This document shows positions 9,812 to 25,578 of a DNA stretch of 54,048 nt, piece by piece. Position numbers and translations under genes: made by a program. Source of the stretch: Verrucomicrobiia bacterium (GTDB taxonomy: Bacteria; Verrucomicrobiota; Verrucomicrobiia; Limisphaerales; UBA11358); the NCBI GenBank assembly GCA_035943555.1, contig DASZCA010000366.1:1-54048 (forward strand), written 5' to 3'. The notes under the pieces were generated by a model. That model had not been told where the DNA came from. It searched no databases and saw nothing but the letters and a program-made list of their open reading frames with translations. The first letter of the stretch is position 1; every line of letters begins with the position of its first letter.

Positions 9812-9821
9812 AAAGCCCGGC

Positions 9822-9974: not shown

Positions 9975-10116
9975 TTAATTCGAATTGCCCAAGCGAAACT
10001 GAGCCTTGTTGATTCTATCCATTTTAAGGCTTTGCCAAATGAGCTTGCCGCGAACGCGAATTCGGGGATAATAGCTCCGGTGATCAAAACCACTTTTGAT
10101 CGCCAATCAAACGGTT

Positions 10117-10206: not shown

Positions 10207-10297
10207 AATTGAAACCGGATTGCGACGGTTTAGTGAAAGATCCCCACTTGGCGCCAAAAGGATGGACGCGGACGCCCGCTTGGCGTAAAACAGCTTC

Positions 10298-10849: not shown

Positions 10850-10882
10850 TAACCCGCCTGAAACCGGCATGCGAAAGAGCCT

Positions 10883-11347
10883 TCAAAGCGCATCCGCCCG
10901 CAATTTCATAAAATAGACATCACTCAACGGCTGGCCGCCCAGCTTCACGTAGAAGGCTGCCGCAAGTTCGTTGGCACGATAGACGGACCAGATCAATTCT
11001 TTGGCATCCGCTGCACGGGCAATGCGAGCCGCCTCCACCATGAGGGCGCGACCCATGCCACGCCGCCGGGTACCGGCTTCCACATAAAGATCGGCCACAT
11101 AAAAGGTTCGTGCAGCGGCGTCCGAATCGTAGCCGAAGTGATAGAGCAAGTAGCCGGTCACCACACCATCATCCTCGGCCACGATTCCGGAAAAGGCCGG
11201 TTGCGCACCAAAGCCATCCCGCAAATAAGTTTCCGCGTTGAGGTTGAAATCAGAGTTGTCGCCCAAGCCGCGCAGATAAGCGGCGAATTGTTGCGCGAGG
11301 GCGCCGATGGCTTGGGCATCATCGGCGCGGGCTGGTCGGGTGGCCAT
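10883..11347 (-). CDS. GNAT family N-acetyltransferase
   Basis: 154 aa. Acetyl-CoA motif A: LYVEAGTRRRGMGRALMVEAARIA. Convergent with the FMN reductase gene. Confidence 0.9.
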   Translation of the reverse strand: MATRPARADDAQAIGALAQQFAAYLRGLGDNSDFNLNAETYLRDGFGAQPAFSGIVAEDDGVVTGYLLYHFGYDSDAAARTFYVADLYVEAGTRRRGMGRALMVEAARIARAADAKELIWSVYRANELAAAFYVKLGGQPLSDVYFMKLRADAL

Positions 11348-11469
11348 GATTGGTGTTCCAAGTGTCGGATGAAACGCAAAAACCTTACACTAAATCAACA
11401 ATAACCCGCCCGGCACCCGCCAGTTCAGTCTTGATATGAACAAACCCTCCGCATACTCGTTTTAGTGAC

Positions 11470-14400
11470 ATGGCCGAACCAATCCATGACCGTCCGACGG
11501 ATACCTCCATCTTTCTACGCCAGCAGGCGGTGATGAGCGATGCCATGCGGCGCGACATGTTGCGGGCCAACACGGCGGTGGTGATGGTGCTGGTGGCGGT
11601 GCTGGTGATGGCGTTGATTGCGATGTTCGCCGGGTGGCGGGCGGCGAAAAACTTGCGCCGGGCGGAAACAGCAGAATCCAAGGGCCGGGAACGGTTGCGG
11701 CTGGCTTACACGGAGGAAGCCCGGGCGATCCGCGTCGCTGCCGACGCCGGCGGCCGCATGGCCGCACTGATCGCAATCAGCAACGCGGTGGCGATCCAAC
11801 CTTCGCCCGAACTCCGGACCGAGGCCACCGCCTGCCTCGCCCTCTCGGATCTGGTGCAAGAAGGCGCCATGGTGCCGGCTCCGAAAGATCTGGCGCGGTT
11901 GTTAATGGATCCGCAGATGAAATATTTTGCGACCGGTGACATGGTGGGAAATGTCCAGATCTTCAGCCTGGTGGATGGCAGCCAGGCATTTGAATTTCCG
12001 GCGGCGAGCCTGGGTGTCAGGACGCATCAACCGATCATTGACCTGACCTTCAGCCCGGACAGTTCGATGATCGCAACACGCTTTGACAACGGTGCGGTCG
12101 CGGTCTGGAATCTGCAAACCTGCCGGGCCATTTTCACCAACAGCGTGGAGGCGACGAACACAATGATCGCGCGTCTGCCAACCGGGCTGGTTTTTTCAGC
12201 GGATTCAAAACAATTGATCTTCGGCGACGTCGCAGAGCAGGGCCAGATATCCATTTATGACCTGACAACAGGGCAAAAAATTTCAAGCGCGATCAATGTC
12301 ATCGGCAAGACCTACCGCATGCGTCCGGACCTCAAGCAAGTGGCGGTCATCACAGATAACCGCGTGGAGGTGTTTGATTATCCAGCGGGAACAAAACAAG
12401 GCGCGCTGGCGCATTCGGCCCATGTCGAGATGGTGGAGTGGTCACCGGACGGCCTGCGATTGGCGGTTTCCGGATTTGACGGGGATGTCTTTCTGTGGGA
12501 GCGGGACACCGACGTGCAGCGGCATTTTGCCGGGCACAGCGAACGGAGCATCCGGCTTAATTTTAATTTTGACGGCACGCGGCTTTTTTCCAGTTCGCGT
12601 GATGGCAGAACCCGGCTCTGGGATGTCACCCTCGGCCGACTGATCGCGGTGGGGGAAGGGTTCGGCTGCACCTTCACAGCAGACGGCCAGCGGATCGGTT
12701 ATTGGCGGCCGGTGGCCGGCTTCGGAACGTGGCGGTTGATGCCGAGCAAAGTATTCGCCTTGCATGAATGTGACAAAGCCGAGGGCTCCCTGCTATCCAT
12801 CGACCTTTCACCCAGCGGCCGATGGTGCGTGGTAACGCAGGGCAAGGGTTTTCGTCTCTGGGACCTGATGAACGGTGACCGGGAAACATATGTCCCGGGA
12901 ACATTTTACAATGTGCGGATGGCCATGGATGAAAAATCGCTTTTTGTCTGCAAAACCAACGGCCTGGAAACGTGGCCGCTGACCATGGATGGATCTGGTG
13001 CATTGGAATTATCCCAGGCACAGGCGAAAAAAATTCCGCTGCCGGATGACTTGGGTGCCCGGGCCGTGGCTTTGAGCCAGGATGATCGTTGGGCGGCGGT
13101 GGAACTGATGGACCGGCGGATGGTGCGGATTGACCTGACCGGCCATGCGCCGGTGGTGGAATTAAAAGGCCGGTGGCGTGGTTTGAATTACAAGGGTCCG
13201 GGCAGCGTGACCGGCGCGGGGCGGTTCGTCATCAGCCCGGATGGCAACTGGGTGGTGACCGGATTTGATTTTGAAAGTTATGGCCCCCGCGTCTGGAACG
13301 CGAACACCGGCGAGCTGGCCGCGGAACTGCCGGCGGGAAGCTCATTGGCCAGCTTCACGCAAGACGGTCGCTGGCTCGGGCTTTCGGGGGTCAGCCGGTA
13401 CTCGATCTGGTCGGTGGGCGACTGGCATTTGCAAAAAGAGTTCATCCGCGACGAGGCCACATTGGTGCATGGCGCGCTGGCCTTTATGCCCGATGCCGGA
13501 ACGCTCGCCATTTCACAGACCCGGCAACTCGTGCAATTGCGCGACTGGCAGACGGATGAAAAGATCGGTGACCTGATTCCGCCAGCCGCGCAGAGCATCA
13601 ATACGATCCGGGTGTCGTTGAACGGAGCCATGCTGGTCATGGCGACAGGCAATGACATGGTGGAAGTGTGGCGGCTGAGCCCATTGCGGGAGGCGCTGGC
13701 GGCGATGGGACTTGATTGGAACACTTCGTCTCCGGGTACGGCGGCAGCCATCGCCACGTTGCGTCCGGCCGGAAGCCCGGAAATGATTTTCCTCGCGAGC
13801 CTGGGCGGATTTGCGCTGGTGGCGATCCTGGTTTTGCTGACATTGCGCCGGCACCGGACTGCGATCGAACGGTTTGTGGTGGCGGAAGCCAGCGCGGCGC
13901 AGCGCAACCGCGAGCTGGACCTGGCCAAAGTGGAATTGATGCACAGCCAGAAGATGCAGGCGCTGGGAACGTTGGCCACCGGCATCGCCCACGATTTCAA
14001 CAACCTGCTCTCCGTGGTGCGCATGTCCAACAAGCTGATCGCCCGGCAAGCTCCTGATGATCCGGAAATCCAGGAACACGTGACGGGCATCGAACAGGCG
14101 GTGTTGCAGGGAAAAAGCGTGGTGAGCTCGGTCTTGGGCTATGCGCGGCCGGGAAAAGACACCGGGGAATTTGCCGATGTCAGCGCCGTGGTGAACGAGG
14201 TGGTGGCGTTGTTAAGCCGCGAGTTTTTGAGCGGAATCGAACTGACCTTGGAACTGGATCGCAATGCGCCCCGGGCCCGGGTCGCCCGCGGGCCGCTGGA
14301 GCAGGTGCTGTTGAACCTGCTGGTGAACGCTTCCGAAGCGATGCAAGGCGAAGGACATTTGAAAATCGTTTTGCATGCGTGCGCGGCCTTGCCGCCGGGT

Positions 14401-14706
14401 GCCTATATTCTGCGACCGTCTCCGGCGGGGGAATATGTGGAACTGAACGTGGTGGATACCGGCCCGGGCATTGCGCCGGAAATCCGTGACCGGCTGTTCG
14501 AGCCTTTTTTTACAACCAAGCAGAAAGCTGCCAAGGCCGGAACGGGCCTGGGTCTTTCACTGGTCTATTCCATCGCGCAACAGACCGGCATCGGGTTGAG
14601 CTTGGAAAGCGAACCTGGCAAGGGCGCCCGGTTCACGCTGTTCATTCCGGCCGGCGGCACGGCTGTGCGCCAAATGCACAGTGCCAAAATCAACGACCCG
14701 GCTTAA
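11470..14706 (+). CDS. Sensor histidine kinase with a ~720-aa extracytoplasmic WD40/beta-propeller region between two TM helices
   Basis: 1078 aa. TM1 VVMVLVAVLVMALIAMFAGW. WD-like blades: VQIFSLVDG, VAVWNLQT, VFLWERDT, TRLWDVTLG, FRLWDLMNG, VEVWRL. TM2 MIFLASLGGFALVAILVLLTL (~13783-13845). HisKA MQALGTLATGIAHDFNNLL. N box LLNLLVNASEAM. G1 VVDTGPGI. G2 GTGLGLSLV. Confidence 0.9.
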   Translation: MAEPIHDRPTDTSIFLRQQAVMSDAMRRDMLRANTAVVMVLVAVLVMALIAMFAGWRAAKNLRRAETAESKGRERLRLAYTEEARAIRVAADAGGRMAALIAISNAVAIQPSPELRTEATACLALSDLVQEGAMVPAPKDLARLLMDPQMKYFATGDMVGNVQIFSLVDGSQAFEFPAASLGVRTHQPIIDLTFSPDSSMIATRFDNGAVAVWNLQTCRAIFTNSVEATNTMIARLPTGLVFSADSKQLIFGDVAEQGQISIYDLTTGQKISSAINVIGKTYRMRPDLKQVAVITDNRVEVFDYPAGTKQGALAHSAHVEMVEWSPDGLRLAVSGFDGDVFLWERDTDVQRHFAGHSERSIRLNFNFDGTRLFSSSRDGRTRLWDVTLGRLIAVGEGFGCTFTADGQRIGYWRPVAGFGTWRLMPSKVFALHECDKAEGSLLSIDLSPSGRWCVVTQGKGFRLWDLMNGDRETYVPGTFYNVRMAMDEKSLFVCKTNGLETWPLTMDGSGALELSQAQAKKIPLPDDLGARAVALSQDDRWAAVELMDRRMVRIDLTGHAPVVELKGRWRGLNYKGPGSVTGAGRFVISPDGNWVVTGFDFESYGPRVWNANTGELAAELPAGSSLASFTQDGRWLGLSGVSRYSIWSVGDWHLQKEFIRDEATLVHGALAFMPDAGTLAISQTRQLVQLRDWQTDEKIGDLIPPAAQSINTIRVSLNGAMLVMATGNDMVEVWRLSPLREALAAMGLDWNTSSPGTAAAIATLRPAGSPEMIFLASLGGFALVAILVLLTLRRHRTAIERFVVAEASAAQRNRELDLAKVELMHSQKMQALGTLATGIAHDFNNLLSVVRMSNKLIARQAPDDPEIQEHVTGIEQAVLQGKSVVSSVLGYARPGKDTGEFADVSAVVNEVVALLSREFLSGIELTLELDRNAPRARVARGPLEQVLLNLLVNASEAMQGEGHLKIVLHACAALPPGAYILRPSPAGEYVELNVVDTGPGIAPEIRDRLFEPFFTTKQKAAKAGTGLGLSLVYSIAQQTGIGLSLESEPGKGARFTLFIPAGGTAVRQMHSAKINDPA

Positions 14707-14717
14707 AATCCGGATGG

Positions 14718-15383
14718 ATGACTGAAACGATGGAAATACTGGCTTCAATATTGATCGTGGAAGACGACCCGCGGCAATTGAGGCTGTATGCCCAGGCTTT
14801 GCGTGCGTACCGGCTGACGTGCGTTGCCACCGGCACCGCCGCGCTGAAAGCGATGAGTGAAATGAAACCGGACCTCATCATCCTGGATAATGTGCTGGAT
14901 GCCGGCGAGCGCGGGGTGGATTTTTTGCCCAAGCTCAAAAGCGCGGCGGCCCATGTGCCCATCATCCTCATTTCCGGCACGTTAAAAATTCATGAGCAGA
15001 TGGCGGCATTGCAAGGTCCGCGCTCGGCCCATTTCACATTGGACAAGCCGATCGACCTGGATGAACTGGATCGCACGGTGGAGATCGCGCTGACGGAGTG
15101 CGGTTTCGGGGAGACGGTCGCGGCGCTGCAATCGCTGGAACGGGCGGAAAAGATCGAGGCATCCGAACCGGACCGGCGCTTCACGGAGCGCCTGGCACGG
15201 CAATACGAAATGATCAAGCGTCTGCGCGGCGCCGCGGCACGACCCAATATTTCTGAATTGTCGCGCGAGTTCAATGTCGCCCGGAAGACCATCATCCGCG
15301 ACCTGCAGGACTTGATCAAACGCGGCCAGTTGCCCGGGGAGATCTATCCGGAGTGGAACCAGGAAAACACCGGCGAGGAATAG
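14718..15383 (+). CDS. Response regulator: receiver domain plus a C-terminal DeoR/winged-helix-like HTH
   Basis: 221 aa, 11 nt after the kinase gene. ILIVEDD, phospho-acceptor context DLIILDNVL, conserved Lys in LDKP. C-terminal HTH: NISELSREFNVARKTIIRDLQDLIKRGQL. Confidence 0.88.
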   Translation: MTETMEILASILIVEDDPRQLRLYAQALRAYRLTCVATGTAALKAMSEMKPDLIILDNVLDAGERGVDFLPKLKSAAAHVPIILISGTLKIHEQMAALQGPRSAHFTLDKPIDLDELDRTVEIALTECGFGETVAALQSLERAEKIEASEPDRRFTERLARQYEMIKRLRGAAARPNISELSREFNVARKTIIRDLQDLIKRGQLPGEIYPEWNQENTGEE

Positions 15384-15464
15384 CCGGCGCCAGGATTTCT
15401 TTGGCGCCCCCTGTGCGTCACTCGCACAGTATTGCGAGGGACTTTACCGTGGTACAAGAGGGGC

Positions 15465-18400
15465 ATGGAAAATCACAATTCCGTTCCAGCCCGGGTTATT
15501 TTATTCTTCACCTGCTGCTTTGTCTGGCTGGCTTTTCCGGTGCGCGGCAACACGCTGACCTGGACGGGCACCGGCGCCAATGCGTATTGGAACAACAGCG
15601 CCAACTGGGGCGGCTTCGGCATTCCAGCCAACGGCGATACGTTGATTTTCACCGGCTTCACCAACTATGTGAACACAAACAACATCGCCAACCTGACGTT
15701 GAATTCGATCAAGTTTTATGACTTTTCCAGCAGTTTCGACCTGCGCGGCAACGCGTTCACCCTGACGAACAGCATCATCGACACAAACTTCGTCGGCAGC
15801 GCGATCATCGAAAACAACATCACACTGGCAACTGCGGATGTGCTGCTGCGGGTCGACAGCATTTTTTCCACCCTGACCTTGGAAGGTCAACTCACAGGCT
15901 CCGTGGGCGTGAACAAGACCGGGACGGGACGGTTGCTCTACCAGTATGGCGGGAACAACACGTATACCGGCACCACGCTGGTGGGCAACGGCTATCTGGA
16001 ACTGAACGTGAGCGGGAGCAGCGCCTTTGGCGGGCCGCTGGTGATCGGCGACGGTTCGGGCAGCAACAGCATAGTGCAGTTGCTACAGAGCGTGGAAATC
16101 TCGACCGCCGCAGACATCAGCCTGAACAAGGATGGCTTGCTGGATCTGAACGGGTTTTACCAGACCATCGGCACCAACGTGCTTTTCAACGGCACCGCCA
16201 GCGCTATTTTTAGCGGGAGCGGCGGGCTGTCCTTGTTGCCCAATTGCACGATCACTTTGGCCACCGGCGTGGTGGGCAGCATCACTGGCAACCTTAACAT
16301 CGGGTCCGGCACCTTGAACATTGTGGGCGATAACGGCCCGCTATTCAGCCAGGCCATTTTTTCCGTGTCTGCGAATGTGAGCGGTTCGGCCAATATCACG
16401 CAAAACGGATGGGTCGACAGTCAATGGTCGGGCACCAATACTTACTCGGCCATTTATACCGCCAACGGCCCCAGTTTCATCGTGTTGGCCAATTCCCAGG
16501 CATTGGGCAATCCGACCAACACCATGACGCTCAACGGGCGGTCCGCGGTGCAGCTAAGCGGCAACATCCACGTCACCAACCAGTGGCTGACCATCAACAG
16601 CACCAATGTCGCCTACGACTATGCCCTGTCGGTTGAATCCACCTCGACCAATTCCTGGCAGGCCAATTTTTTGCTCGGCACAAATGTGATGGTGGATGTC
16701 GCGACGAACTGTTCTTTGATACTCAACATCAACAGTTCCATCACCGGCCCGGGCGGCATCATCAAATCCGATAAGGGCGGCCTAACGCTGGCGGGAGGAA
16801 TCAATGTGAGCAGCTACATTGGGGATACGACGGTCCTGGGCGGAACGTTATTCTTGGATTCCGTCAATGTCATCCGTTATGGAAGGCTGACGGTGGGCTC
16901 CGGCTCCGGCCAACCCAAGGCAACTGCCGTACGATATCTGGCGAATTCGTGCATTTATGGCGGGCCCGGTGGATCCACCGTTTTGCTTAATGAAGACGGC
17001 TGGCTGGATCTGAACGGATTTTTTGATGATGTGGGGCCGATCGCGATGGACGGGGCGACCATCACCACGGGGGCGGGAATGTTATCGCTGTTTCCGCCGC
17101 TGACAGCCGTCGCCGGCGGCCATGGCAGCGCGTTCGTCTACGGAAACATGCAATTGACGGGCAACAGCGCGCTAGTGGCGTCCAACGCGTTGGTGGTGTA
17201 CGCCCAGGTCTCCAGTTCCGGCAACTACACGCTCACCAAGAGCGGCCCCAGTTTTCTGTTTTTGTTGGCGAGCAATTCTTATGCGGGCACAAATATCGTC
17301 CAGCAAGGCTGGCTCAGCCTGGGCAACGGCTCGGCTTTGGGCAGCGCGAACAACAGCACGATCGTCAGCAATGGCGCGACCCTGACCATGAACGGAAATT
17401 TCACGGTGACGCAGGCATTGCTCACCTTGAACGGGCCGGGCGAGCCGAGCTGGGGTTCTTTGGATTCGGAAACCATCGGCGGCACGAACGTCTGGATGGG
17501 GCCGATCGTTTTGAATGCGGACAGCAATTTTTCGCCGGACCAGGAGGGCACGACCCTCCGGCTGATCAGCCAGATCAGCGGGCCCGGCGGGTTCACACAA
17601 TTCAATGACGCGGGCGATACCAACAGCGTACTCTCGCTGGAAGGCAATGCGGTCAATTCGTATGGCGGGACCACCATCGTCAATGGCGGCACCTTGATGT
17701 TGAGCAAAGCTTCCGGGCAAGCGGTGCCGGGCAACTTGGTGATCAATAATCAAAGCGTGGCCCGGCTGGGGTACTACACGCAAAACGCCCAGACAGCCGA
17801 TGTGCTGGTGAACAGCGGCGGCCTGTTCGACCTGTCCATCTACTATACCTATATCGATACGCTGCACGGTACCGGCCAGGTAAACTTTGGCACCCAAGGA
17901 TGGATCGAAGTGGGCTTTAACAACGGTAGCAGCACGTTTGCCGGGGTGATGACCGGCACGGGCTATACATCCGGCGGTTATACGGTGGCCAAGCGCGGTT
18001 CTGGTACGTTCACGTTGACAGGCAATAACACCTTCACCGCCGGGGCGACCCATGTTTTCTCGCCGGGCAAACTCATCATCAACGGCAGCCAGGCGCAGGT
18101 GCCGGCCATCGTGGATGCGGGCGCGACATTGGGCGGCACGGGCACAGTCGGCGCGATCACGGCGAACGGCGTGATCTCCCCCGGCACCAACGGACCGGGC
18201 GTTCTTGGCAGCGGCACGGTGACCTACGGCAGCACAGGCAGCCTGGCCGTGATGCTCAATGGCACAACGGTCGGAAGTGGCTACAGCGAGTTGAACGTGG
18301 CCGGGACGGTCAACTTGGCCAGCGCCACGTTATCGGTGATTCCGGGAACGCCGGGGGCGATCAACAATCAGTATACAATTCTCAATAATGATCTTTTCGA

Positions 18401-18761
18401 TGCGGTCAGCGGCACCTTTGCCGGACTGGCGGAAGGCGCCACGGTGGTGGCGAACAATGGCGCGCTGTACACGATCAGTTATCATGGCGGCTCGGGCAAT
18501 GACGTGGTGTTGACACAGATTGCGCTGCCATCGTTGCCGAAATTCACGGGCATCCAGAAATTGATGGGCGGTGCCTTACAGATCAACGGCATCGGCATCA
18601 GCAATCTGACTTACACGGTGCAGGCCAACACGAATCTGGCCACGACGAACTGGGTCGCCATCGGCACGACCACGCCGCCCGCGAACACCAACACCTTGCA
18701 GTTCACGGATTTCAACGCCATCAGTTTTCCGCAGCGGTTCTATCGTTTCTATCTGCCTTGA
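15465..18761 (+). CDS. Secreted autotransporter-associated beta-strand-repeat (passenger-like beta-helix) protein. It has no beta-barrel translocator and ends in the shared C-terminal module.
   Basis: The track ORF starts at TTG 15432. ATG 15465 gives MENHNSVPARVILFFTCCFVWLAFPVRG. TWTGTGANAYWNNSANWGG. Repeats of the type GGNNTYTGTTLVGNGYLELN, NSYAGTNIVQQGWLSLGNGSALGS, NSYGGTTIVNGGTLMLSK. Passenger-end-like YTISYHGGSGNDVVLT. C-terminus ...YTVQANTNLATTNWVAIG...QRFYRFYLP*. Confidence 0.88.
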   Translation: MENHNSVPARVILFFTCCFVWLAFPVRGNTLTWTGTGANAYWNNSANWGGFGIPANGDTLIFTGFTNYVNTNNIANLTLNSIKFYDFSSSFDLRGNAFTLTNSIIDTNFVGSAIIENNITLATADVLLRVDSIFSTLTLEGQLTGSVGVNKTGTGRLLYQYGGNNTYTGTTLVGNGYLELNVSGSSAFGGPLVIGDGSGSNSIVQLLQSVEISTAADISLNKDGLLDLNGFYQTIGTNVLFNGTASAIFSGSGGLSLLPNCTITLATGVVGSITGNLNIGSGTLNIVGDNGPLFSQAIFSVSANVSGSANITQNGWVDSQWSGTNTYSAIYTANGPSFIVLANSQALGNPTNTMTLNGRSAVQLSGNIHVTNQWLTINSTNVAYDYALSVESTSTNSWQANFLLGTNVMVDVATNCSLILNINSSITGPGGIIKSDKGGLTLAGGINVSSYIGDTTVLGGTLFLDSVNVIRYGRLTVGSGSGQPKATAVRYLANSCIYGGPGGSTVLLNEDGWLDLNGFFDDVGPIAMDGATITTGAGMLSLFPPLTAVAGGHGSAFVYGNMQLTGNSALVASNALVVYAQVSSSGNYTLTKSGPSFLFLLASNSYAGTNIVQQGWLSLGNGSALGSANNSTIVSNGATLTMNGNFTVTQALLTLNGPGEPSWGSLDSETIGGTNVWMGPIVLNADSNFSPDQEGTTLRLISQISGPGGFTQFNDAGDTNSVLSLEGNAVNSYGGTTIVNGGTLMLSKASGQAVPGNLVINNQSVARLGYYTQNAQTADVLVNSGGLFDLSIYYTYIDTLHGTGQVNFGTQGWIEVGFNNGSSTFAGVMTGTGYTSGGYTVAKRGSGTFTLTGNNTFTAGATHVFSPGKLIINGSQAQVPAIVDAGATLGGTGTVGAITANGVISPGTNGPGVLGSGTVTYGSTGSLAVMLNGTTVGSGYSELNVAGTVNLASATLSVIPGTPGAINNQYTILNNDLFDAVSGTFAGLAEGATVVANNGALYTISYHGGSGNDVVLTQIALPSLPKFTGIQKLMGGALQINGIGISNLTYTVQANTNLATTNWVAIGTTTPPANTNTLQFTDFNAISFPQRFYRFYLP

Positions 18762-18808
18762 AGAATTTAAAAACCTCGCACGCCGGACATCAAAAAAAAC
18801 ATACACCC

Positions 18809-21604
18809 ATGAAACTCAAAAAAACAATCATCTTGGCTGCGTCCTTTCTTGGCGCAGCGCTGACGTGCCCGGCCCAAGGCACGGCTTTCACCTATCAAGG
18901 CCGTTTAAACAACGGCGGCGCGCTGGCGAACGGCAGCTATGACATGGCGTTCACGCTCTATGCCACGAACGTGACGGGCAGCGCGATCGCCGGGCCGGTA
19001 ACGAACACGGCGGTGGCGGTGAGCAACGGCCTGTTCACGACCACGGTGGATCTGGGCGGTGCTTTTAACGGCACGAGCAACTGGTTGCAGATCGCCGTGA
19101 GCACGAACAGTGCGAATGTGTTCAGCACACTCACGCCCCGCCAGCGGCTGACGCCGGTGCCTTACGCGCTGTATTCCACCATGGCAGGCTATGCCACCAC
19201 CGCCGGCCTGGCCGCGAGTGTGCCGCCGGACAGCATCACGGCGGCCATGCTGGCGCCGGGCGCGGCCTCGGTGCTGGGCACGCCGAATGGAACGGCAACC
19301 AATGCGGTGACCGTCAATAACAACGGGCTGGTGGGCATCGGCACCGGATCCGCCACGCCGGCGGCGGGTTTGCAGATCAACTCCGGGGGCACTGAAGCCA
19401 TCTTGCCGGTGTTGTTTGAAGTGCAAAATGGCATCGGGGGATACACAAATATCAGTTCCGCAATCATGCCGGCCGTAAAAAATAATCTGCTGGCGGTCGC
19501 CGGCGGCGGCGGCATCACGTTGGTGAGCCTCACCAATCCGGCCGCACCGCAGTTGCTGGCACAATCGACGGGCAACGGGATTTTCACCAACCTCAACACC
19601 CCGACCGGCCTGGCCTGGGCCGGATCAAATCTGATCGTCGCCGCCCAATCATCCAGCGCGCTGACCATTTTCTCGTGCACGAATCCGGCCAATCCCGTGG
19701 CCATCGCGCAAGAACTGAACGGCGTAGGCGGCTGGAACTATTTGAGCGCGGCCTCGGGCGTGGCCGTTTCGGGCAATTTGCTGGCCGTCGCATCCGCGGG
19801 AAGCAGTGCGGTCACGCTGGGTGACGTTTCGACCCCGGCCGCGCCGGTGTTAAAAAGCACCATGGTGAACGGCACCTTTGGCTTCACCAACTTGGGCGGC
19901 TCATTTTCCGTGGCCCTGTCCGGCAACGTGCTGGCGATCGGCGCTTTTTATTCCAACGCGGTGACGTTGGTGAATGTCGCAGATCCGACGAATCCGCAGA
20001 AGCTGGCCGAGCTCCGCAACGGCGTGGGCGGGTTCACCAACCTGTCCGGGGTCTATGCGGTGGCGCTGTCCGGCAACTTGCTGGCCGTGGCGGGGGTCTA
20101 TAGCAGTGCGGTGACGCTGGTGGATGTGAGCAATCCGTCAAATCCGGTCAAGCTGTCGGAAATACGGGACGGTGTGGGCGGCTATTCCTTGCTTGAAGCA
20201 TTATCGGTGGCCATTTCCGGCAACCGGTTGATCATCGGCAGCCTGGGCGCCAACACGGTTACCTTGGTAGACATCAGCAATCCGGCCAACCCGGTCTTGA
20301 TGGCCACGGCCAGAAATGGCCTGAACGGCGCCAACTATCTGGTTTCACCGGAAGGTTTGGCGTTCGCCGGCACCAATTTTGTGTCCTGCGCCAGCTCCGG
20401 GGCTTTCACCATTTTTGGTGTCGCGACACAATCCGTGGGACTGGCCAGCGCGGGCTGGGTGGGAATCGGCACCACGCAACCGCAGGCGGCCTTGGACGTG
20501 GAGGGAGATGTCGTGGTGGAAAACGCGGCGCATTTCACGGCCAGCGCTCCTCAAGTGGCCATAGGTTTAAATGCCATCGCCGGCGGGTACCAATCCGCCG
20601 CGCTGGGTGATAACGCGGTGGCCAGCGGCACCAATTCACTGGCCTTGGGCGGCAACGCGCTGGCGAGCGGTACTTATTCAACGGCCCTGGGTTTCTATGC
20701 TGTCGCCTCTGGATTTGATTCCGACGCGTTTGGCACCTACGCCCAAGCCCTTGGCCAGCAATCCGCCGCAGTGGGCCATGCGACATCTGCCAGCGGCGAT
20801 TATTCGGTGGCCGTGGGCAACACGGCGTACGCACAGGCCGCCTCCGCCGTGGCCGTGGGCAGCGGCGTAACCGCCTCCGCCCTAGATTCCATGGCTTTCG
20901 GCGTCAACGCGAATGCGTTGGCAGAAAATGCCGCCGCGCTGGGTTATTTCGCGGCCGCAAGCAACACCAATGCCATGGCGCTGGGATGCCAGACATCGGC
21001 CAACGGCCAAAATGCAACGGCATTGGGATATTTTACAAAGGCGAACGGGGATAATTCCCTCGCGGCCGGATATTTCGCCAACGCCACCAACCGGGGTTCG
21101 ATTATTTTGGCCGATGGCACCGCCTTGGTGGCCTTCAATTCCACAAACAACAACGAGTTCGCCGTGCGCGCCACCGGGGGCGTGCGCCTGGTGACGGCGG
21201 TGGACGGCGGCGGCAATCCCACCGCCGGCGTAAAACTTTTCCCCGGCGGCACGGCTTGGGCCACCATTTCGGATCAGAACGCCAAGAAAAATTTCGTGCC
21301 GGTCAACTGCGCGGAAGTCCTGGACAAGCTCACGGCGGTCCCGATCCAGAAATGGAATTACAAATGGGAAGCCGATTCCAGCACGCCAAACATCGGTCCC
21401 ATGGCGCAGGCGTTCAAGGCCGCCTTCTATCCCGGCCGCGATGATAAATCCATCACCACGCTTGAATTTGACGGTGTGGAACTGGCGGCCATCGAGGGAC
21501 TGAATCAAAAACTGGAAGCGCAAAAAACCGAAAATGCGGCGTTAAAAGAACGCCTGGAGAAGCTGGAAGAATTCATCAACAAACGGACCGGAGGCGCCAA
21601 ATGA
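18809..21604 (+). CDS. Phage-tail-fibre-like secreted protein: conserved N-terminal fibre module, LVIVD-repeat beta-propeller, YadA-head (Hep_Hag)-like repeats, C-terminal peptidase S74 intramolecular-chaperone domain
   Basis: ATG 18809 gives MKLKKTIILAASFLGAALTCPAQG. TAFTYQGRLNNGGALANGSYDMAFTLY. LVIVD-like blades such as GNLLAVAGVYSSAVTLVDVSNPSNPVKL (~19480-20420). 7/14-residue repeats ALGDNAVASGTNSLALGGNALASGTYSTALG (~20560-21110). S74-like domain from SDQNAKKNF (21269), with a coiled-coil tail ENAALKERLEKLEEFI. Confidence 0.85.
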   Translation: MKLKKTIILAASFLGAALTCPAQGTAFTYQGRLNNGGALANGSYDMAFTLYATNVTGSAIAGPVTNTAVAVSNGLFTTTVDLGGAFNGTSNWLQIAVSTNSANVFSTLTPRQRLTPVPYALYSTMAGYATTAGLAASVPPDSITAAMLAPGAASVLGTPNGTATNAVTVNNNGLVGIGTGSATPAAGLQINSGGTEAILPVLFEVQNGIGGYTNISSAIMPAVKNNLLAVAGGGGITLVSLTNPAAPQLLAQSTGNGIFTNLNTPTGLAWAGSNLIVAAQSSSALTIFSCTNPANPVAIAQELNGVGGWNYLSAASGVAVSGNLLAVASAGSSAVTLGDVSTPAAPVLKSTMVNGTFGFTNLGGSFSVALSGNVLAIGAFYSNAVTLVNVADPTNPQKLAELRNGVGGFTNLSGVYAVALSGNLLAVAGVYSSAVTLVDVSNPSNPVKLSEIRDGVGGYSLLEALSVAISGNRLIIGSLGANTVTLVDISNPANPVLMATARNGLNGANYLVSPEGLAFAGTNFVSCASSGAFTIFGVATQSVGLASAGWVGIGTTQPQAALDVEGDVVVENAAHFTASAPQVAIGLNAIAGGYQSAALGDNAVASGTNSLALGGNALASGTYSTALGFYAVASGFDSDAFGTYAQALGQQSAAVGHATSASGDYSVAVGNTAYAQAASAVAVGSGVTASALDSMAFGVNANALAENAAALGYFAAASNTNAMALGCQTSANGQNATALGYFTKANGDNSLAAGYFANATNRGSIILADGTALVAFNSTNNNEFAVRATGGVRLVTAVDGGGNPTAGVKLFPGGTAWATISDQNAKKNFVPVNCAEVLDKLTAVPIQKWNYKWEADSSTPNIGPMAQAFKAAFYPGRDDKSITTLEFDGVELAAIEGLNQKLEAQKTENAALKERLEKLEEFINKRTGGAK

Positions 21605-22050
21605 AAAACCGCGCGTTCCTCGTTCTTATTGTCCTTCACTTCGTTTTCGGCTTCAGCTTGCGAAGCGTGGCGCAAAGCCATTCCATCGACTGGTACAAGG
21701 TCGCCGGAGGCGGCGGGACAAGCACCAACGGGCTGTATTCGCTGAGCGGGACCATCGGCCAACCGGATGCCGGCGGGGCGATGAGCGGCGGGAACTTTTC
21801 GGTGACGGGCGGTTTTTGGGCGCTCATCAATGTGGTGCAGACGCCGGGGGCGCCGCCTTTGTACATCAGCCACAGCGGCAACGTGGTAACGGTGTATTGG
21901 CAGAATCTTGGCAGCTGGACATTGCAACAAAATGGCAGCCTCACGGTTCCGCCGGGCTGGAACAACAGCAGCGGCGTCAACCTGATCGGTGGCACCAACT
22001 ATCTGGCGATCACCAATCCGGCGGGCACGCAGTTTTTTCGGTTGAAATAA
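21601..22050 (+). CDS. Small secreted protein (149 aa): Gly-rich GTIGQPDAG...GGFW motif plus the shared C-terminal module
   Basis: ATGA overlap with the tail-fibre-like gene (21601-21604). Signal MKNRAFLVLIVLHFVFGFSLRSVAQ. GGGGTSTNGLYSLSGTIGQPDAGGAMSGGNFSVTGGFWAL. Ends in TQFFRLK*. Confidence 0.7.
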   Translation: MKNRAFLVLIVLHFVFGFSLRSVAQSHSIDWYKVAGGGGTSTNGLYSLSGTIGQPDAGGAMSGGNFSVTGGFWALINVVQTPGAPPLYISHSGNVVTVYWQNLGSWTLQQNGSLTVPPGWNNSSGVNLIGGTNYLAITNPAGTQFFRLK

Positions 22051-22063
22051 CCAGCCAAACAGA

Positions 22064-24601
22064 ATGACTTCCTTCAAAAAGGAGCCGGGTTTTTGGCAAA
22101 ATTCAAGCGGTGACGACGCGCATGATGTACACTGCGCGGTGCAAATCCGGCGTTTGAAAAAAAGCCTGTCTCTCGGTGTTCTTTTTCTGCTGCCCATGCT
22201 GCTGCTGGCCGGGCCAACGAATGCCATTCTTTTTGTCACGCAACTTCCGGTGCCGGAAGATTTCACGACCGTCGGGTCGGTTTTCGGGAATCAATTGCCG
22301 GATCTGGATTCGTGCGGACGGGGTGGCGATCTTTATATCCGTTATCCGGACGGTTCGGTGAAAAATCTTACGCTGGCGGCGGGCTACGGCCAGACGGGTT
22401 TGCAGACGACGAACGCCATCGCCGTGCGGCAACCATCCGTGTTTTGGGATGGCACGAGGGCGGTTTTCAGCATGGTCATCGGCGCGCCGGAGCATCAATT
22501 CGATTATTCCTCCAACCCGGTGTGGCAATTGTATGAAGTCACCAACTTCACCGATCCCAATGCGCTGCCGGTGATCACGAAGGTGCCGAACCAGCCGACG
22601 AATTTTAACAATATCTCGCCTATCTACGGTTCGGATGACCGGATCATCTTTGCCAGCGACCGGCCGCGCAGCGGGCAGATGAACCTGTATCCGCAACTGG
22701 ATGAATATGAGGAGGCGCCGACGGTCACCGGGTTGTGGAGCTTGCAGCCGACGAACGGTGACCTGTTCCTGATCAATCATTCACCGAGCGGCTCATTCTC
22801 GCCGCAGATCGACAGCGCGGGGCGCATCGTGTTCTCGCGCTGGGACCATTTACAACGCGACCAGCAGGCAGACACGGACTGGTATGAGGGCAGTGATGTT
22901 TATGGCACTTTTAATTGGAGCGATGAATCCGCCAATTCCGTGATGACGACGAACCAGACCGAGGTGTTTCCCGAGCCGCGCAACGTCCGCACGGATCTGC
23001 TGGCGGGCACGGGGTTGTCTGGCGAAGATTTTAACCAGTTTTTCCCGTGGGCGATCGACCAGGACGGGACGGACGAGGAAACGGTGAACCACATCGGCCG
23101 GCACGAAATCGGCGGCAGCTATCTCAACGCGGCCTACACAAACGATCCGAACATCCAGGACCGGTATGATTTCGCCATCAATTACAATACGAACACGGTG
23201 GAGAATTTTCTGATGATCCACGAAGACCCGCACACCCCAGGATTGTATTATGGCATCGACGCGCCGGAGTTCGGCACGCACAGCGGCGGGCAGCTTGTTT
23301 CGCTGACGGGCGCGACGAACATCAACGCGTTCTACATGCGCATCAATTATCTTACGCCGCGCTCGACGCATACCTATGCCGATTCGTACACGAACATTCC
23401 GCCCGATCACACCGGATTTTATCGTAATCCGCTGATGACTTCGGACGGCTACATGATCGCCGCGCACACGTCTTATGCTCTATATGCGGAGAATACCGGC
23501 ACAGACACCAACCCGGCCACACCGTATCATTTTCGGATCAAAATTTTGAATTTCACCAACGGCTTTTACGTGCCGGGCCAGCCGCTGACACCGGGATTCA
23601 TCAAGACGGTTTCGTATTGGACCCCGGATGAGCTGATCGAAGAAACCAACCAGTTATGGGAGTTGGATCCGGTGGAAGTGATTGCGCGCCCGCGACCCGT
23701 ACCATTCACGGTGCCGGTGCCGCAGCCGGAGCTGGATGCATTCGCCACGGCCAAGGTGGATGTGCAGCAATTTCAAAATTATCTCCGCACGCATCAGCTT
23801 GCGCTGCTCGTCAGCCGGGATGTGACCACGCGCGATGAAGCCGACCAGCAACAGCCGTTCAACCTGCAAGTCGCGGGCACGAGCCATTTGACGACCGGGG
23901 CGGGCGGAAAAATTTATGACATCGCGTGGCAGCAATTTTTCCAGGCCGACCAGTTGCGCAGTGAAAACTTTGGCGATCCGGGCAATCCGCGCGAAGGGCG
24001 GCGCGTGCTGGCGCAATATCTGCCCGATCCGGCGGTGGACAATCCGCCAGCGGCGGCGCTATCCAGCGTGCGCATCGGCGCGGACGGCTCGACGGCGGCG
24101 CTGGTGCCGGCGCGGCGGGCGATGACATGGCAGCTTACTGACACGAACAACGTGGGCGTGGTGCGCGAGCGTTATTGGCTAAGTTTTGCGCCGGGTGAAA
24201 TCCGTTCATGCACCAGCTGTCACGGCATCAACGTCGCGACGCAAGCCGGGCATCCCGCGCCGACGAACATGCCGCTCGCACTGGTAAGCCTGTTGAATTA
24301 TTGGAAGACGGCCACGAAGATCCAGCCCGACGTGGTGACAAATCTGGGAACGAAATATTTTCAAATCACCTTTCAACGCCATTCGGTGGAACCGGGGGTG
24401 ACGTATCATGTGCAATCTTCGACGAACATGGTGACGTGGTCTGACATCGCGACGTATGCGGGTTCGAATACCGTGATCAACGCGGGGGCGATGGATGTTT
24501 CCGGCAGCGGATCGACAAATGGATGTGTGACAGTACGCGAAACGACGAAGATTAATGGGGCGACGGCGAAATTTTTAAGGGTGAGCGTGACGCAGCCGTA
24601 G
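22064..24601 (+). CDS. Secreted propeller-like (TolB/PD40-like by motif) protein with a single CxxCH motif and the shared C-terminal module
   Basis: 845 aa from ATG 22064. Alternative GTG 22139 gives a clean signal (M)QIRRLKKSLSLGVLFLLPMLLLAGPTNA. PD40-like strands RIIFASDRP and RIVFSRWDH. SCTSCHGINVATQAGHPAP. C-terminus VTYHVQSSTNMVTWSDI...AKFLRVSVTQP*. Confidence 0.75.
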   Translation: MTSFKKEPGFWQNSSGDDAHDVHCAVQIRRLKKSLSLGVLFLLPMLLLAGPTNAILFVTQLPVPEDFTTVGSVFGNQLPDLDSCGRGGDLYIRYPDGSVKNLTLAAGYGQTGLQTTNAIAVRQPSVFWDGTRAVFSMVIGAPEHQFDYSSNPVWQLYEVTNFTDPNALPVITKVPNQPTNFNNISPIYGSDDRIIFASDRPRSGQMNLYPQLDEYEEAPTVTGLWSLQPTNGDLFLINHSPSGSFSPQIDSAGRIVFSRWDHLQRDQQADTDWYEGSDVYGTFNWSDESANSVMTTNQTEVFPEPRNVRTDLLAGTGLSGEDFNQFFPWAIDQDGTDEETVNHIGRHEIGGSYLNAAYTNDPNIQDRYDFAINYNTNTVENFLMIHEDPHTPGLYYGIDAPEFGTHSGGQLVSLTGATNINAFYMRINYLTPRSTHTYADSYTNIPPDHTGFYRNPLMTSDGYMIAAHTSYALYAENTGTDTNPATPYHFRIKILNFTNGFYVPGQPLTPGFIKTVSYWTPDELIEETNQLWELDPVEVIARPRPVPFTVPVPQPELDAFATAKVDVQQFQNYLRTHQLALLVSRDVTTRDEADQQQPFNLQVAGTSHLTTGAGGKIYDIAWQQFFQADQLRSENFGDPGNPREGRRVLAQYLPDPAVDNPPAAALSSVRIGADGSTAALVPARRAMTWQLTDTNNVGVVRERYWLSFAPGEIRSCTSCHGINVATQAGHPAPTNMPLALVSLLNYWKTATKIQPDVVTNLGTKYFQITFQRHSVEPGVTYHVQSSTNMVTWSDIATYAGSNTVINAGAMDVSGSGSTNGCVTVRETTKINGATAKFLRVSVTQP

Positions 24602-25015
24602 GCCACGCGCTGCGGCTGGTCCCCTTCTCCCCAACACAGCCGCCGCCCATTGAGTCGACGGTATTAGAAGAGTCTCTACAGCTCTGCACCCTATCGGCGC
24701 CCGACCGAAGCACCACTCTATGAGATGTGGCGGGCATTTTCTAAAAGGATTGCCAAATTCCTTTAAACACATCGGTTTCATGGCGAACTGCCTGAAAAAA
24801 TGATTTTTGCGTGCATTTTGCACGGAGAAATCGTGAAAAAATGGCGCGTTCGTGCTTAAAACTTCGGAAATGGGGGGTGGCATGTAAGGAGCTAAGTACA
24901 TTTCGAAGCGAACGGACAGGTTGAGAGGCTCAACATCATTCAAACCTCCTGAACCATAAAGGCCGATGACCTGCCCGCTGCTTCCAAATTTTTAAAACTA
25001 AAACACGAAAATTTT

Positions 25016-25138
25016 ATGCACGCCTTATTTGATCCCATGCTCGGAGCGATCGGGTATTCCCTGATTTACCTGCTGTTCGGCGGCGGTCTCGGCGGGGCGG
25101 TATTTATTTTCATCATCGCCAAAATGTTTGGCAAATGA
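25016..25138 (+). CDS. Possible 40-aa small membrane protein
   Basis: Below the ORF-track size cutoff. ATG 25016 gives MHALFDPMLGAIGYSLIYLLFGGGLGGAVFIFIIAKMFGK*. One Gly-rich TM helix. 42 nt upstream of the BON gene. No clear SD. Confidence 0.3.
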   Translation: MHALFDPMLGAIGYSLIYLLFGGGLGGAVFIFIIAKMFGK

Positions 25139-25180
25139 GCCGAGTTCACTGACAACCAAAAACAACTGAAAACAAACCAT

Positions 25181-25516: not shown

Positions 25517-25578
25517 ACCCATTGTTGAGTTGAAGCAGGCGGGGATGACCCGCCTGCTTCATCCAACTCCAAAAATTT

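Follow-up and report, generated by a model that had tools for sequence, protein, structure and literature searches.

A conserved kinase-regulator pair, a putative palindromic operator and variable secreted cargo in a Limisphaerales genome

The host of the DNA analysed here is a Limisphaerales/Pedosphaera-type Verrucomicrobium from soil or freshwater, and the nearest relatives of one of the genes described below (gene 6) are found in Verrucomicrobiia/Limisphaerales metagenome-assembled genomes. The window, i.e. the whole stretch of 54,048 nucleotides (54 kb), contains six closely spaced open reading frames (ORFs) on the + strand, whose coordinates agree with those of the initial annotation. The genes and the other features of the locus are the following, with the means of recognition in brackets.

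11470..14706, + strand: gene 1, sensor histidine kinase (Pfam, NCBIfam, translation, hydrophobic segments)
14664..14680, no strand: putative operator site 1, TGTGCGCCAAATGCACA, with one mismatch to TGTGCG-N5-CGCACA, within the last kinase codons
14718..15383, + strand: gene 2, response regulator composed of a REC domain and, C-terminally, an HTH_11/DeoR-like winged helix (Pfam and translation)
15386..15408, + strand: 9-bp hairpin without a T-run, directly after the regulator stop codon (RNAfold)
15412..15428, no strand: putative operator site 2, exact TGTGCGTCACTCGCACA, upstream of gene 3 and separated from its ATG by 36 nt
15465..18761, + strand: gene 3, secreted 1098-aa beta-helix protein of the PATR-repeat type; its C-terminal Fn3-like module is encoded at 18534-18758 (Pfam, NCBIfam)
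18809..21604, + strand: gene 4, secreted fibre-like protein of 931 aa (Pfam, NCBIfam, PDB sequence matches)
21601..22050, + strand: gene 5, secreted 149-aa partner, translationally coupled to gene 4 (no family match)
22154..24601, + strand: gene 6, secreted 815-aa protein resembling hydrazine synthase alpha, from its most likely start (the ORF opens at 22064)

The borders of the cluster were also as annotated, i.e. a 122-nt divergent region upstream and a 414-nt gap downstream that extends to a 40-aa ORF at 25016. The inter-gene gaps of 11, 81, 47 and -4 nt were borne out, and the 13-nt gap given before gene 6 was not. Gene 6 is recorded in the database as encoding 815 aa, as against 845 aa for the ORF that opens at 22064, and the 120 homologues listed for it are ~815 aa long; for this reason its true start is most likely the TTG at 22154, giving a product that begins with MKKSLSLGVLFLLP..., a predicted signal peptide, and the gap between genes 5 and 6 would then be 103 nt. 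An exact-sequence look-up of the 845-aa ORF returned no match because the recorded gene begins 30 codons later. The products of genes 3-6 each open with a signal-peptide-like sequence, in agreement with their earlier description as secreted proteins. A GGAGG lies 8 nt upstream of the ATGA overlap that joins genes 4 and 5. A tRNA-Ser gene is located 1.3 kb upstream of the cluster, and an Rfam search of the whole window found nothing beyond a tRNA. No clear terminator was found after gene 6, and a scan of positions 10800-25600 for consensus sigma-70 promoters and terminators gave counts no higher than those in shuffles, and no intergenic site.

Genes 1 and 2 had been read as a WD40-type sensor kinase and a response regulator, and both readings hold: WD40-type repeats, HisKA and HATPase_c were found in gene 1 by Pfam/NCBIfam, and the two genes together qualify as a two-component system. 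The kinase has transmembrane segments at residues 35-56 and 772-792, on either side of a periplasmic WD40-type beta-propeller region of ~715 aa, and C-terminal to the propeller come HisKA (24.1 bits, slightly below the cut-off of 26.9, with the H-box GIAHDFNN visible in the sequence) and then HATPase_c (80.3 bits, cut-off 26.4). In gene 2, Response_reg scored 57.4 bits (cut-off 30.2) and HTH_11 21.1 bits, under the cut-off of 25. Wherever a homologue of the kinase (42-81% identity) lies in a locus with room for both genes, a homologue of gene 2 always comes next, and these regulators are 70-90% identical across ~24 loci. The NCBIfam models for PrsK and PorX gave scores in the cluster of 78.9 and 25.3 bits, respectively, below the cut-off of 300 of each.

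Hybrid two-component systems of Bacteroides, e.g. BT4663, control polysaccharide utilisation loci via periplasmic beta-propeller sensors. Like the pair described here, they combine a membrane kinase with a large beta-propeller sensor in the periplasm and adjoin secreted or surface proteins presumably under their control, with cargo that varies from locus to locus. Unlike them, the present system consists of a classical kinase and a separate REC/HTH_11-like winged-helix regulator without a fused AraC output; there is no SusC/SusD pair, and the cargo is mostly beta-helix and fibre proteins rather than glycoside hydrolases. The likeness seen is one of architecture.

The pair is accompanied by a 17-bp palindrome, TGTGCG-N5-CGCACA. 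The window and the related loci, 895 kb in all, contain 31 exact copies, where base composition predicts 0.08 and 5 shuffles yielded none, and 59 copies with at most one mismatch, as against 1-5 in the shuffles; two-mismatch matches in the window are at chance expectation. Site 1, located 37-54 nt upstream of the regulator ATG, recurs in all distinct kinase-regulator loci without a change of relative position, and encodes the conserved kinase tail V-R-[EQ]-[TM]-H-S. Of 22 loci, 17 have homologues of site 2 between the regulator gene and the first cargo gene, 23-390 nt past the regulator stop codon, as one copy or two, often in pairs 21 bp apart; the loci are kin to one another, and these counts are therefore not independent events. 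In the closest relative, a copy stands before each downstream transcription unit, and in L001 additional exact palindromes precede an LRR gene and the fibre gene. The downstream operator is missing in the other 5 of the 22 loci, some of which still have secreted genes downstream (L046). The palindrome is also missing at L070, which has a different two-component system, and at the fibre-partner pairs of L035, L037 and L038. In the window, a search ahead of genes 4 and 6 found no operator with at most one mismatch, and gene 6 likewise has none of its own in 12 of 13 other loci. In L013 the HZS-like gene (the gene 6 homologue) is among the putative targets of the palindrome. In single-mismatch palindromes the other arm carries no compensating change, a pattern that fits protein-DNA recognition better than an RNA hairpin, and we infer that the palindrome is a putative target of the gene 2 regulator.

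In related loci, the position of the hairpin at 15386..15408 is occupied by a canonical intrinsic terminator, CGGCGCGG-N4-6-CCGCGCCGTTTT. Since most relatives have such a strong terminator between regulator and cargo, a single six-gene transcript is unlikely; the window, however, has a single downstream copy of the operator, and its hairpin lacks a T-run, so that transcription may here run on from the kinase promoter. Genes 3-5 are tightly spaced and neither gene 4 nor gene 6 is preceded by an operator, which fits one transcript from a gene 3 promoter.

Gene 3 is, as annotated, a barrel-less beta-helix protein: PATR (28.2 bits) and TIGR02601 were its sole matches, its C-terminus is the Fn3-like module, and the 12-stranded beta-barrel translocator of classical type Va autotransporters was not found by Pfam or NCBIfam. 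It shares the PATR passenger repeat with classical autotransporters but lacks the C-terminal membrane beta-barrel that defines them. The C-terminal module is common to three of the four secreted products, as first described, namely those of genes 3, 5 and 6; however, it is a generic Fn3-like domain and not particular to the cluster. In the window it occurs on four unrelated proteins and, outside the cluster, on GH16, LTD/CotH and fn3 proteins; the secreted proteins carrying it number 7 in 54 kb, and it is found in 6,676 protein clusters, often in 2-11 tandem copies. Pfam searches at E up to 10 returned nothing for the C-terminal modules or for gene 5, and NCBIfam gave no match for the modules either, its T9SS CTD (TIGR04183/TIGR04131) and PEP-CTERM (TIGR02595) models included. 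T9SS CTD with PorXY, and PEP-CTERM with PrsK/PrsR, are likewise cases of a small C-terminal beta-sandwich on unrelated secreted proteins with a two-component system nearby; the module differs from them in matching neither model and in being often tandem, and no sorting machinery was identified.

The product of gene 4 was confirmed as tail-fibre-like with a self-cleaving-type chaperone domain, on the basis of LVIVD, five YadA_head repeats and Peptidase_S74. A signal peptide is followed by an N-terminal domain, fibN (~residues 19-135), LVIVD repeats, YadA-head repeats (~590-790) and the chaperone domain, and the protein has neither a membrane anchor nor the C-terminal module. YadA_head scored 93.5 bits over 5 stretches, with PDB sequence matches to BpaC (7e-22) and YadA (1p9h, 2e-7). 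Peptidase_S74 (PF13884) scored 34.8 bits (cut-off 22) at residues 821-873, where Ser821 and Lys826 lie five residues apart in ISDQNAKK (Ser codon 21269-21271). A catalytic Ser-Lys dyad of this family has been described in phage tailspikes and fibres with an intramolecular chaperone (PMC3742443), and the dyad of gene 4 predicts trimerisation-dependent self-cleavage. YadA-head repeats are shared with trimeric autotransporter adhesins (YadA, BpaC, Ata), but the C-terminal membrane anchor of these adhesins is absent; Pfam and NCBIfam found no YadA-type anchor beta-barrel, and the C-terminus is Peptidase_S74. Since genes 3 and 4 both lack a C-terminal membrane barrel or anchor, their products are not type V secretion substrates. 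The C-terminal Peptidase_S74 domain is held in common with phage fibres and tailspikes (the endosialidase K1F type) and also with MYRF. Gene 4 differs from phage fibres in its chromosomal, non-phage context, its Sec export, its body of LVIVD and YadA-head repeats, its N-terminal domain, which is common to other host secreted proteins, and its coupled partner, which has no phage counterpart. Across homologues fibN is conserved and the fibre body is variable; a phmmer search of fibN against PDB sequences gave no match at E up to 10.

Gene 5 encodes, as annotated, a 149-aa partner coupled to gene 4 through the -4 (ATGA) overlap. It consists of an invariant Gly-rich segment (~residues 26-73), modelled at low confidence, and the Fn3-like module (residues 74-148, encoded at 21844-22047); Foldseek of the model gave weak Fn3/Ig-like matches only, the best at E = 0.09. 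The family comprises at least 7,968 clusters. Six distinct contexts have a family member directly downstream of a large protein devoid of the C-terminal module; the two genes show the -4 overlap in four of these contexts, and fibN was recognised in five of the six large proteins. The view of gene 5 as the constant partner of module-less fibN proteins is weakened by the S74 fibre of L070, which has no gene 5 homologue, and by the Kelch-fibN protein of L035, which is coupled to a 265-aa gene unrelated to gene 5.

In the initial annotation no metabolic enzyme domain had been recognised in the four secreted products, the S74 module apart; gene 6, however, carries the enzyme-type domain PF18582, HZS_alpha (33.4 bits, cut-off 26.6, residues 666-720 of the 845-aa ORF). 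The 815-aa protein comprises a beta-propeller, a middle domain with CxxCH at residues 686-690 (encoded at 24209-24223) and the Fn3-like module (24347-24598), and the CxxCH is, as annotated, the only one. Its structural model, of moderate quality (pLDDT 69), has chains A and D of 5C2V as top Foldseek match (E = 2e-17 over 776 columns, at 13% identity), the next match being at 1e-6, and phmmer against PDB sequences returned no match at E up to 1. Hydrazine synthase alpha of anammox bacteria (PDB 5C2V, PF18582) shares with gene 6 the propeller, the middle domain and the invariant CxxCH. Gene 6, however, has one haem motif instead of two, the Fn3-like domain replaces the C-terminal cytochrome domain with the second bis-His haem c, no genes for the beta or gamma subunits stand beside it, and the lineage is not anammox. 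No other haem-motif protein was found in the cluster, and the domains of the neighbours are unrelated. Homologues of hydrazine synthase alpha outside anammox bacteria are already known, without a tested function (PMC12758564). Those of gene 6 extend across four phyla, occurring in Deinococcales, Caldilineaceae and Nitrospira as a gene on its own with ~50% identity; the CxxCH does not vary among 81 homologues, and no intact full-length homologue found in the other phyla lacks it. The neighbours of the HZS-like genes in Deinococcales, Nitrospira and Caldilineaceae provided no conserved context that would suggest a function, and the homologue stands alone in 4 of 11 Verrucomicrobial contexts (L002, L007, L008 and L013). 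By sequence and model, the product looks like a putative mono-haem enzyme-like protein and not an adhesin. As gene 6 has no operator, is 103 nt away and is often found elsewhere in the genome, its membership of the array is uncertain.

A check across related genomes for a conserved six-gene order found no relative with this set of six genes. Constancy is confined to two pairs, i.e. kinase-regulator (~24 loci) and fibre plus 149-aa partner (6 contexts, usually with the ATGA overlap), and what lies between the regulator and gene 6 is different in each of the related genomes. The cargo consists for the most part of PATR beta-helix proteins, of fibres and of other secreted proteins with the tag; it differs among the window, L001, L014, L039, L041, L046, L053, L059, L061 and L065, with PATR-type cargo recurring in L055, L059, L070 and L035. 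For instance, L001 has three other genes in place of gene 3 and a different fibre body, L014 has a single 1870-aa protein and a PEP-CTERM protein, and L070 has, in that order, its different two-component system, a PATR protein, an S74 fibre and an HZS-like protein. In the literature we found no description of such a locus type, of the C-terminal module or of the gene 5 family.

We consider it fairly probable that the locus is a conserved regulatory module with exchangeable secreted cargo, and not a fixed six-gene machine. The initial proposal that the two-component pair controls the adjacent secreted proteins gains support from the conserved pair, from the palindrome in ~24 loci and from its copy before gene 3. 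According to this model, the membrane kinase with its periplasmic beta-propeller sensor would phosphorylate the REC-winged-helix regulator, which would bind TGTGCG-N5-CGCACA. Autoregulation is suggested by the copy within the last kinase codons, shortly before the regulator gene, and the further copies, ~35-60 nt before the first downstream start codon, would probably overlap the cargo promoter. The operator would thus govern a variable array of Sec-exported proteins, many of them ending in a lineage-wide Fn3-like domain; in the window, the array would comprise the barrel-less PATR beta-helix protein, a trimeric self-cleaving fibre and its small coupled partner, possibly joined through read-through by the mono-haem HZS alpha-like protein. 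The net effect would be a set of secreted or surface proteins that changes with the signal, not the building of one six-part machine. What the sequences show is the gene and domain content, the constancy of the two pairs, the variation of the cargo, and where and in what excess the palindrome occurs; binding of the palindrome by the regulator, the sign of the regulation, the signal, the co-transcription of genes 3-5 (and 6) and the surface localisation belong to the model.

It is also conceivable, but rather unlikely, that the arrangement is a coincidence, the two-component system regulating only itself or distant genes and independent secreted genes gathering near a conserved haem-enzyme gene. 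Module-bearing secreted proteins are indeed common, as the 7 in the window show, the regulator gene is followed by a terminator in most relatives, L048, L067 and L045 have no same-strand secreted genes past the regulator, and the tRNA-Ser gene 1.3 kb upstream together with a transposase flanking the L070 array hints at a plastic region. However, in 17 of 22 loci the operator sits past that terminator and adjoins the first cargo gene on its upstream side, whichever gene this is, and it is repeated ahead of inner cargo units in L001, while L048 and L067, which have no downstream cargo, have no downstream operator either. Furthermore, module-bearing ORFs are enriched about four-fold downstream of the regulator (9/33 versus 17/240; Fisher p = 0.0013).

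The initial interpretation of all six genes as one dedicated, co-inherited, signal-controlled machine for a surface fibre, adhesion or contact-dependent function, in which every product is obligatory, fares worse and appears improbable. The same-strand genes are tightly packed, L070 resembles the window in gene content and order, its two-component system being a different one, fibN proteins occur in L035 together with a homologue of gene 5, a PATR-like protein and a paralogue of the HZS-like gene, and in 7 of 11 Verrucomicrobial contexts the HZS-like gene has a two-component system or large secreted proteins next to it. Against this stand the cargo, which varies so that no relative has the same six genes (L001, L014 and L070 differ), the terminator of the relatives, an HZS-like gene that is isolated in the four Verrucomicrobial loci named above and solitary in Deinococcales, Caldilineaceae and Nitrospira, the generic nature of the shared module and the resemblance of gene 6 to a haem enzyme; in addition, components for secretion, anchoring and assembly were not found among the window ORFs scanned. 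That genes 4 and 5 are a tail fibre and its assembly chaperone left by a prophage or tailocin is hardly credible, since the S74 domain with its intact Ser-Lys dyad, the small coupled gene reminiscent of phage fibre-chaperone pairs and weak PHROG matches in the gene 4 repeat regions are set against the absence of capsid, tail, baseplate, terminase, integrase and lysis genes among the window ORFs scanned, PHROG matches of gene 4 that are all to function-unknown families on LVIVD/YadA-type repeats, the lack of any PHROG match in genes 3, 5 and 6, the Sec signal peptides of genes 4 and 5, and a gene 5 C-terminal domain identical in kind to that on ordinary secreted enzymes of the host.

The reading of a regulatory module with exchangeable cargo could be carried further, in a form that we regard as speculative and unlikely as a whole: the loci would form an undescribed Limisphaerales regulon of swappable surface cassettes, in which fibres with fibN as their common N-terminal docking domain bear interchangeable distal domains, gene 5 tethers or escorts the auto-cleaved fibres and supplies them with an Fn3-like domain, the HZS-like protein is a linked extracellular redox enzyme, and the Fn3-like domain could be the tag recognised by a Verrucomicrobial surface-sorting pathway.

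Soil and freshwater harbour abundant Verrucomicrobia of the Limisphaerales/Pedosphaera group, yet to our knowledge almost nothing is known of their cell-surface biology. The kinase, the regulator and the 17-bp operator constitute a testable code, which could predict regulated surface proteins in hundreds of uncultured genomes. The fibre with a self-cleaving chaperone and its widespread small partner are an uncharacterised two-gene module, the C-terminal domain is an unannotated one on thousands of secreted proteins, and the relative of hydrazine synthase alpha is a strongly conserved, uncharacterised haem protein of four phyla. Current ideas are not overturned by these results; rather, each part offers a way into uncharacterised protein families.

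All six plus-strand ORFs of the initial annotation are present as described, and its spacings for genes 1 to 5 (11, 81, 47 and -4 nt), its 122-nt divergent region ahead of the cluster and its 414-nt gap behind it all hold. The 13-nt gap that it placed between genes 5 and 6 is most likely 103 nt instead: the ORF of gene 6 opens at 22064, and since the database gene is of 815 aa and the best 120 homologues are also about 815 aa long, translation most likely begins at the TTG at 22154, from where the product has a clean signal peptide. Genes 4 and 5 overlap in an ATGA, and a GGAGG lies 8 nt 5' of the overlap. The features are as follows.

10117-10206, +, tRNA-Ser (anticodon CGA)
11470-14706, +, gene 1, kinase
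14664-14680, putative operator site 1, one mismatch to the palindrome
14718-15383, +, gene 2, regulator
15412-15428, putative operator site 2, exact palindrome, 36 nt 5' of the gene 3 ATG
15465-18761, +, gene 3, PATR-repeat protein
18809-21604, +, gene 4, fibre
21601-22050, +, gene 5, 149-aa partner
22154-24601, +, gene 6, hydrazine synthase (HZS)-like protein

Genes 1 and 2 are a bona fide two-component system. Gene 1 encodes a membrane histidine kinase, in which a periplasmic WD40-type propeller region of ~715 aa lies between two transmembrane segments (residues 35-56 and 772-792) and is followed by HisKA and HATPase_c, while gene 2 encodes a REC domain with an HTH_11/DeoR-like winged helix; both score far under the cut-offs of every named equivalog in NCBIfam. 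In Bacteroides, propeller-sensor two-component systems control adjacent surface-protein loci, and these are the closest functional analogy, though an analogy only, to the arrangement seen here. Among the homologous loci of other genomes (L-numbers) that were anchored on the kinase, the regulator gene always directly follows the kinase gene. What comes after the regulator varies, including PATR proteins (L055, L059), fibres with the N-terminal domain of gene 4, hereafter fibN (L039, L061), and assorted proteins bearing the C-terminal module described below (L041, L046, L053, L065, L066); L045, L048, L050 and L067 have no same-strand secreted genes there.

When the DNA 3' of the regulator stop codon was compared across loci, most relatives proved to have two elements in succession. 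The first is a strong intrinsic terminator, CGGCGCGG-N4-6-CCGCGCCGTTTT, to which 8 loci have an exact match and others a similar hairpin; the second is the palindrome TGTGCG-N5-CGCACA, present once or twice, with 21 bp between paired copies. In every locus compared, the palindrome is also found within the last kinase codons, 37-54 nt 5' of the regulator ATG, where it explains the conserved kinase tail V-R-[EQ]-[TM]-H-S; the constraint on this tail appears to come from the DNA palindrome that encodes it rather than from protein function, with a putative operator embedded in coding sequence. Over the 895 kb of the window plus loci, 31 exact copies occur against 0.08 expected, and 59 copies with at most one mismatch against 1-5 in shuffles. 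Since the single-mismatch variants show no compensating change in the other arm, a protein-binding DNA site is favoured over an RNA hairpin. Being near start codons, the putative operator may overlap the core promoter. L001 holds additional exact palindromes 5' of an LRR gene and of the fibre gene, and in L013 an exact copy (9913-9929) lies 88 nt 5' of the otherwise isolated HZS-like gene, with no kinase-regulator pair within 10 kb, which suggests that the regulon reaches unlinked genes in some genomes. The palindrome is absent from L070, whose two-component system differs, and from the fibre-partner pairs of L035, L037 and L038.

Conservation does not extend to the six-gene set as a whole. 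L001 keeps homologues of gene 6 (81%), the kinase (78%), the regulator (90%) and gene 5 (76%); its gene 3 is swapped for three genes (345 aa, 284 aa and a 562-aa LRR protein), and its fibre resembles gene 4 only over the initial 170 residues (51%) and one short segment further on. In L014 the kinase and regulator are followed by a 1870-aa module protein, a 220-aa PEP-CTERM protein and the HZS-like gene. The two-component system of L070 is another one, with a NarL-type regulator; behind it come a PATR protein (33% identity to gene 3), a fibre with fibN and Peptidase_S74 (S74) and the HZS-like gene, and the locus has no gene 5 homologue. A large module-bearing protein is encoded immediately 5' of the HZS-like gene in L009 and L072, an unrelated two-component system lies in divergent orientation in L006, and in L002, L007, L008 and L013 the HZS-like gene stands amid unrelated genes. 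Because the kinase-, gene 5- and gene 6-anchored loci vary otherwise, the kinase-regulator and fibre-partner pairs are the constant units. A second array type was observed in L035 (ERZ27313598 k141_90880, 1-16400), where the genes adjoining a divergent CHASE-domain kinase encode, in this order, a Kelch-fibN protein, a coupled 265-aa product, a DUF7452-fibN protein, a gene 5 homologue, a PATR-like protein, a Big_9 protein and an HZS_alpha+Flg_new_2 protein (42-49% identity to gene 6); this array has no copy of the palindrome.

The base composition of the cluster shows no departure from the remaining window, the flanking genes are ordinary chromosomal ones (GNAT, aldo-keto reductase, CorA, Fe-ADH, SDF transporter), and the closest relatives are Verrucomicrobiia/Limisphaerales/Pedosphaera MAGs. 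The tRNA-Ser gene, the sole RNA family match in the window, 1.3 kb 5' of the kinase gene, and a DDE transposase directly 3' of the HZS-like gene in L070 are possible signs of genomic plasticity in the region. A stand-alone MEKHLA-domain protein (35242-35748, -; 189 bits) adjoins an iron-containing alcohol dehydrogenase; the domain is more familiar from plant HD-ZIP III proteins.

Genes 3 and 4 share passenger repeats with autotransporters, but as the barrels that define these are missing, neither product is a type V substrate; in gene 3, Pfam and NCBIfam scans found no beta-barrel. The gene 4 product consists of a signal peptide, fibN, LVIVD repeats, YadA-head repeats (matching BpaC, 7e-22) and Peptidase_S74, whose Ser821 and Lys826 have the spacing of the catalytic Ser-Lys dyad of endosialidases and MYRF (PMC3742443); it belongs to the class of S74 chaperone-domain proteins, although its surroundings are not those of a phage. 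The fibN domain (residues ~19-135; 18863-19213), for which the PDB gave no sequence matches, is common to neighbouring secreted proteins with unlike bodies (Kelch, DUF7452, S74 fibres and others), as in L035 (1550-4771, 5490-7985), L037 (5425-8004, 11563-13647) and L038 (5593-8004, 8614-8952, 11714-13330). The pattern is reminiscent of a shared docking domain to which different distal parts can be fitted.

For gene 5, searches of Pfam, NCBIfam and PHROGs gave no family match. In its AlphaFold model, predicted as a monomer, a signal helix precedes a Gly-rich stretch of low confidence (residues 26-71), and residues 74-148 form a confident beta-sandwich. Despite the low confidence, the Gly-rich stretch is the best-conserved part of the family, with W31, K33, GGG37-39, GTxGQxDA50-57 and TGGxW69-73 invariant. 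The family comprises at least 7,968 clusters (60-86% identity, proteins of ~145-155 aa), and the many members on very short contigs suggest multi-copy genes that break assemblies. Family loci include the window, L001, L035, L037, L038 and L053. In six distinct contexts a homologue lies directly 3' of the gene for a large protein, with a 4-nt overlap in four; five of the six upstream proteins carry fibN, and that of L053 matched solely the gene 4 repeat region. We speculate that a fibre which loses its own C-terminus by cleavage obtains a C-terminal domain from gene 5: the C-terminal module is missing from each of the six upstream partners, but the S74 fibre of L070 has no gene 5-type partner.

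This module, an Fn3-like beta-sandwich of ~65-90 aa ending in F/Y-F/Y-R-L/V/I, is common to genes 3, 5 and 6. It occurs at the following positions in seven otherwise unrelated secreted proteins.

18534-18758, +, gene 3
21844-22047, +, gene 5
24347-24598, +, gene 6
9596-9808, +, 1938-aa LTD/CotH protein (3995-9811)
41864-42055, GH16 protein (39686-42058)
45777-45974, -, small fn3 protein (45774-46319)
46549-46746, -, small fn3 protein (46546-47100)

The 1938-aa protein, encoded shortly 5' of the cluster on the same strand, also has three lamin-tail (LTD) domains, a CotH kinase-like domain and LamG; the two small proteins (181 and 184 aa), adjacent and paralogous, consist of one fn3 and the module each. 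No Pfam or NCBIfam model matches the module, and its fold is Fn3/Ig-like, though no solved structure matched significantly in Foldseek. A profile from the seven copies retrieved 6,676 representative clusters; tandem sets of 2-11 copies are frequent among them, usually with one copy at the extreme C-terminus. The module may serve for anchoring or sorting, or may just be a common structural unit; being generic, it is no evidence that genes 3, 5 and 6 form one system. Within the 8 kb 3' of the regulator, module-bearing ORFs show roughly four-fold enrichment (9/33 vs 17/240, p = 0.0013, counted on a crude ORF set from phylogenetically non-independent loci).

Gene 6 matches PF18582 (hydrazine synthase alpha middle domain) above cut-off, and the top Foldseek match to its model (pLDDT 69, pTM 0.71) is hydrazine synthase (5C2V chains A and D, E = 2e-17, 776 columns), the second being eleven orders of magnitude weaker; the product is thus a predicted structural relative of hydrazine synthase alpha. 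Because the second haem and the partner subunits are missing, it is not a hydrazine synthase. The single CxxCH is invariant across 81 homologues, and the 67-81% identity among Verrucomicrobial homologues suggests that the protein is enzyme-like and strongly constrained. Homologues in Deinococcales, Trueperaceae, Caldilineaceae and Nitrospira MAGs (L015-L034; ~50% identity over residues 25-720) keep the CxxCH whenever intact and full-length, end soon after it without the module, and are solitary, with no conserved gene context found. The family is a widespread mono-haem propeller protein; hundreds of HZS-alpha-like proteins are found outside anammox bacteria, none with tested function (PMC12758564).

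A dedicated six-gene apparatus is therefore not upheld, as the gene set is not conserved and the shared module is generic. The best reading of the cluster is a conserved sensor/regulator/putative operator module ahead of an exchangeable secreted-protein array. Since the spacing is tight and no operator was found 5' of gene 4 or gene 6 in the window, genes 3-5 would probably be co-transcribed from the operator-controlled promoter, and gene 6 may be transcribed by read-through or independently. The position of the HZS-like gene at the 3' end of such arrays in 7 of 11 contexts, together with the L013 operator, argues for some link of gene 6 to the arrays; the solitary homologues argue against an obligatory one. 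The searchable literature yielded no account of the regulatory module, of the gene 5 family or of the C-terminal domain. The original idea of two-component regulation of the adjacent secreted genes holds, and the conserved palindrome, as a candidate operator, renders it concretely testable.
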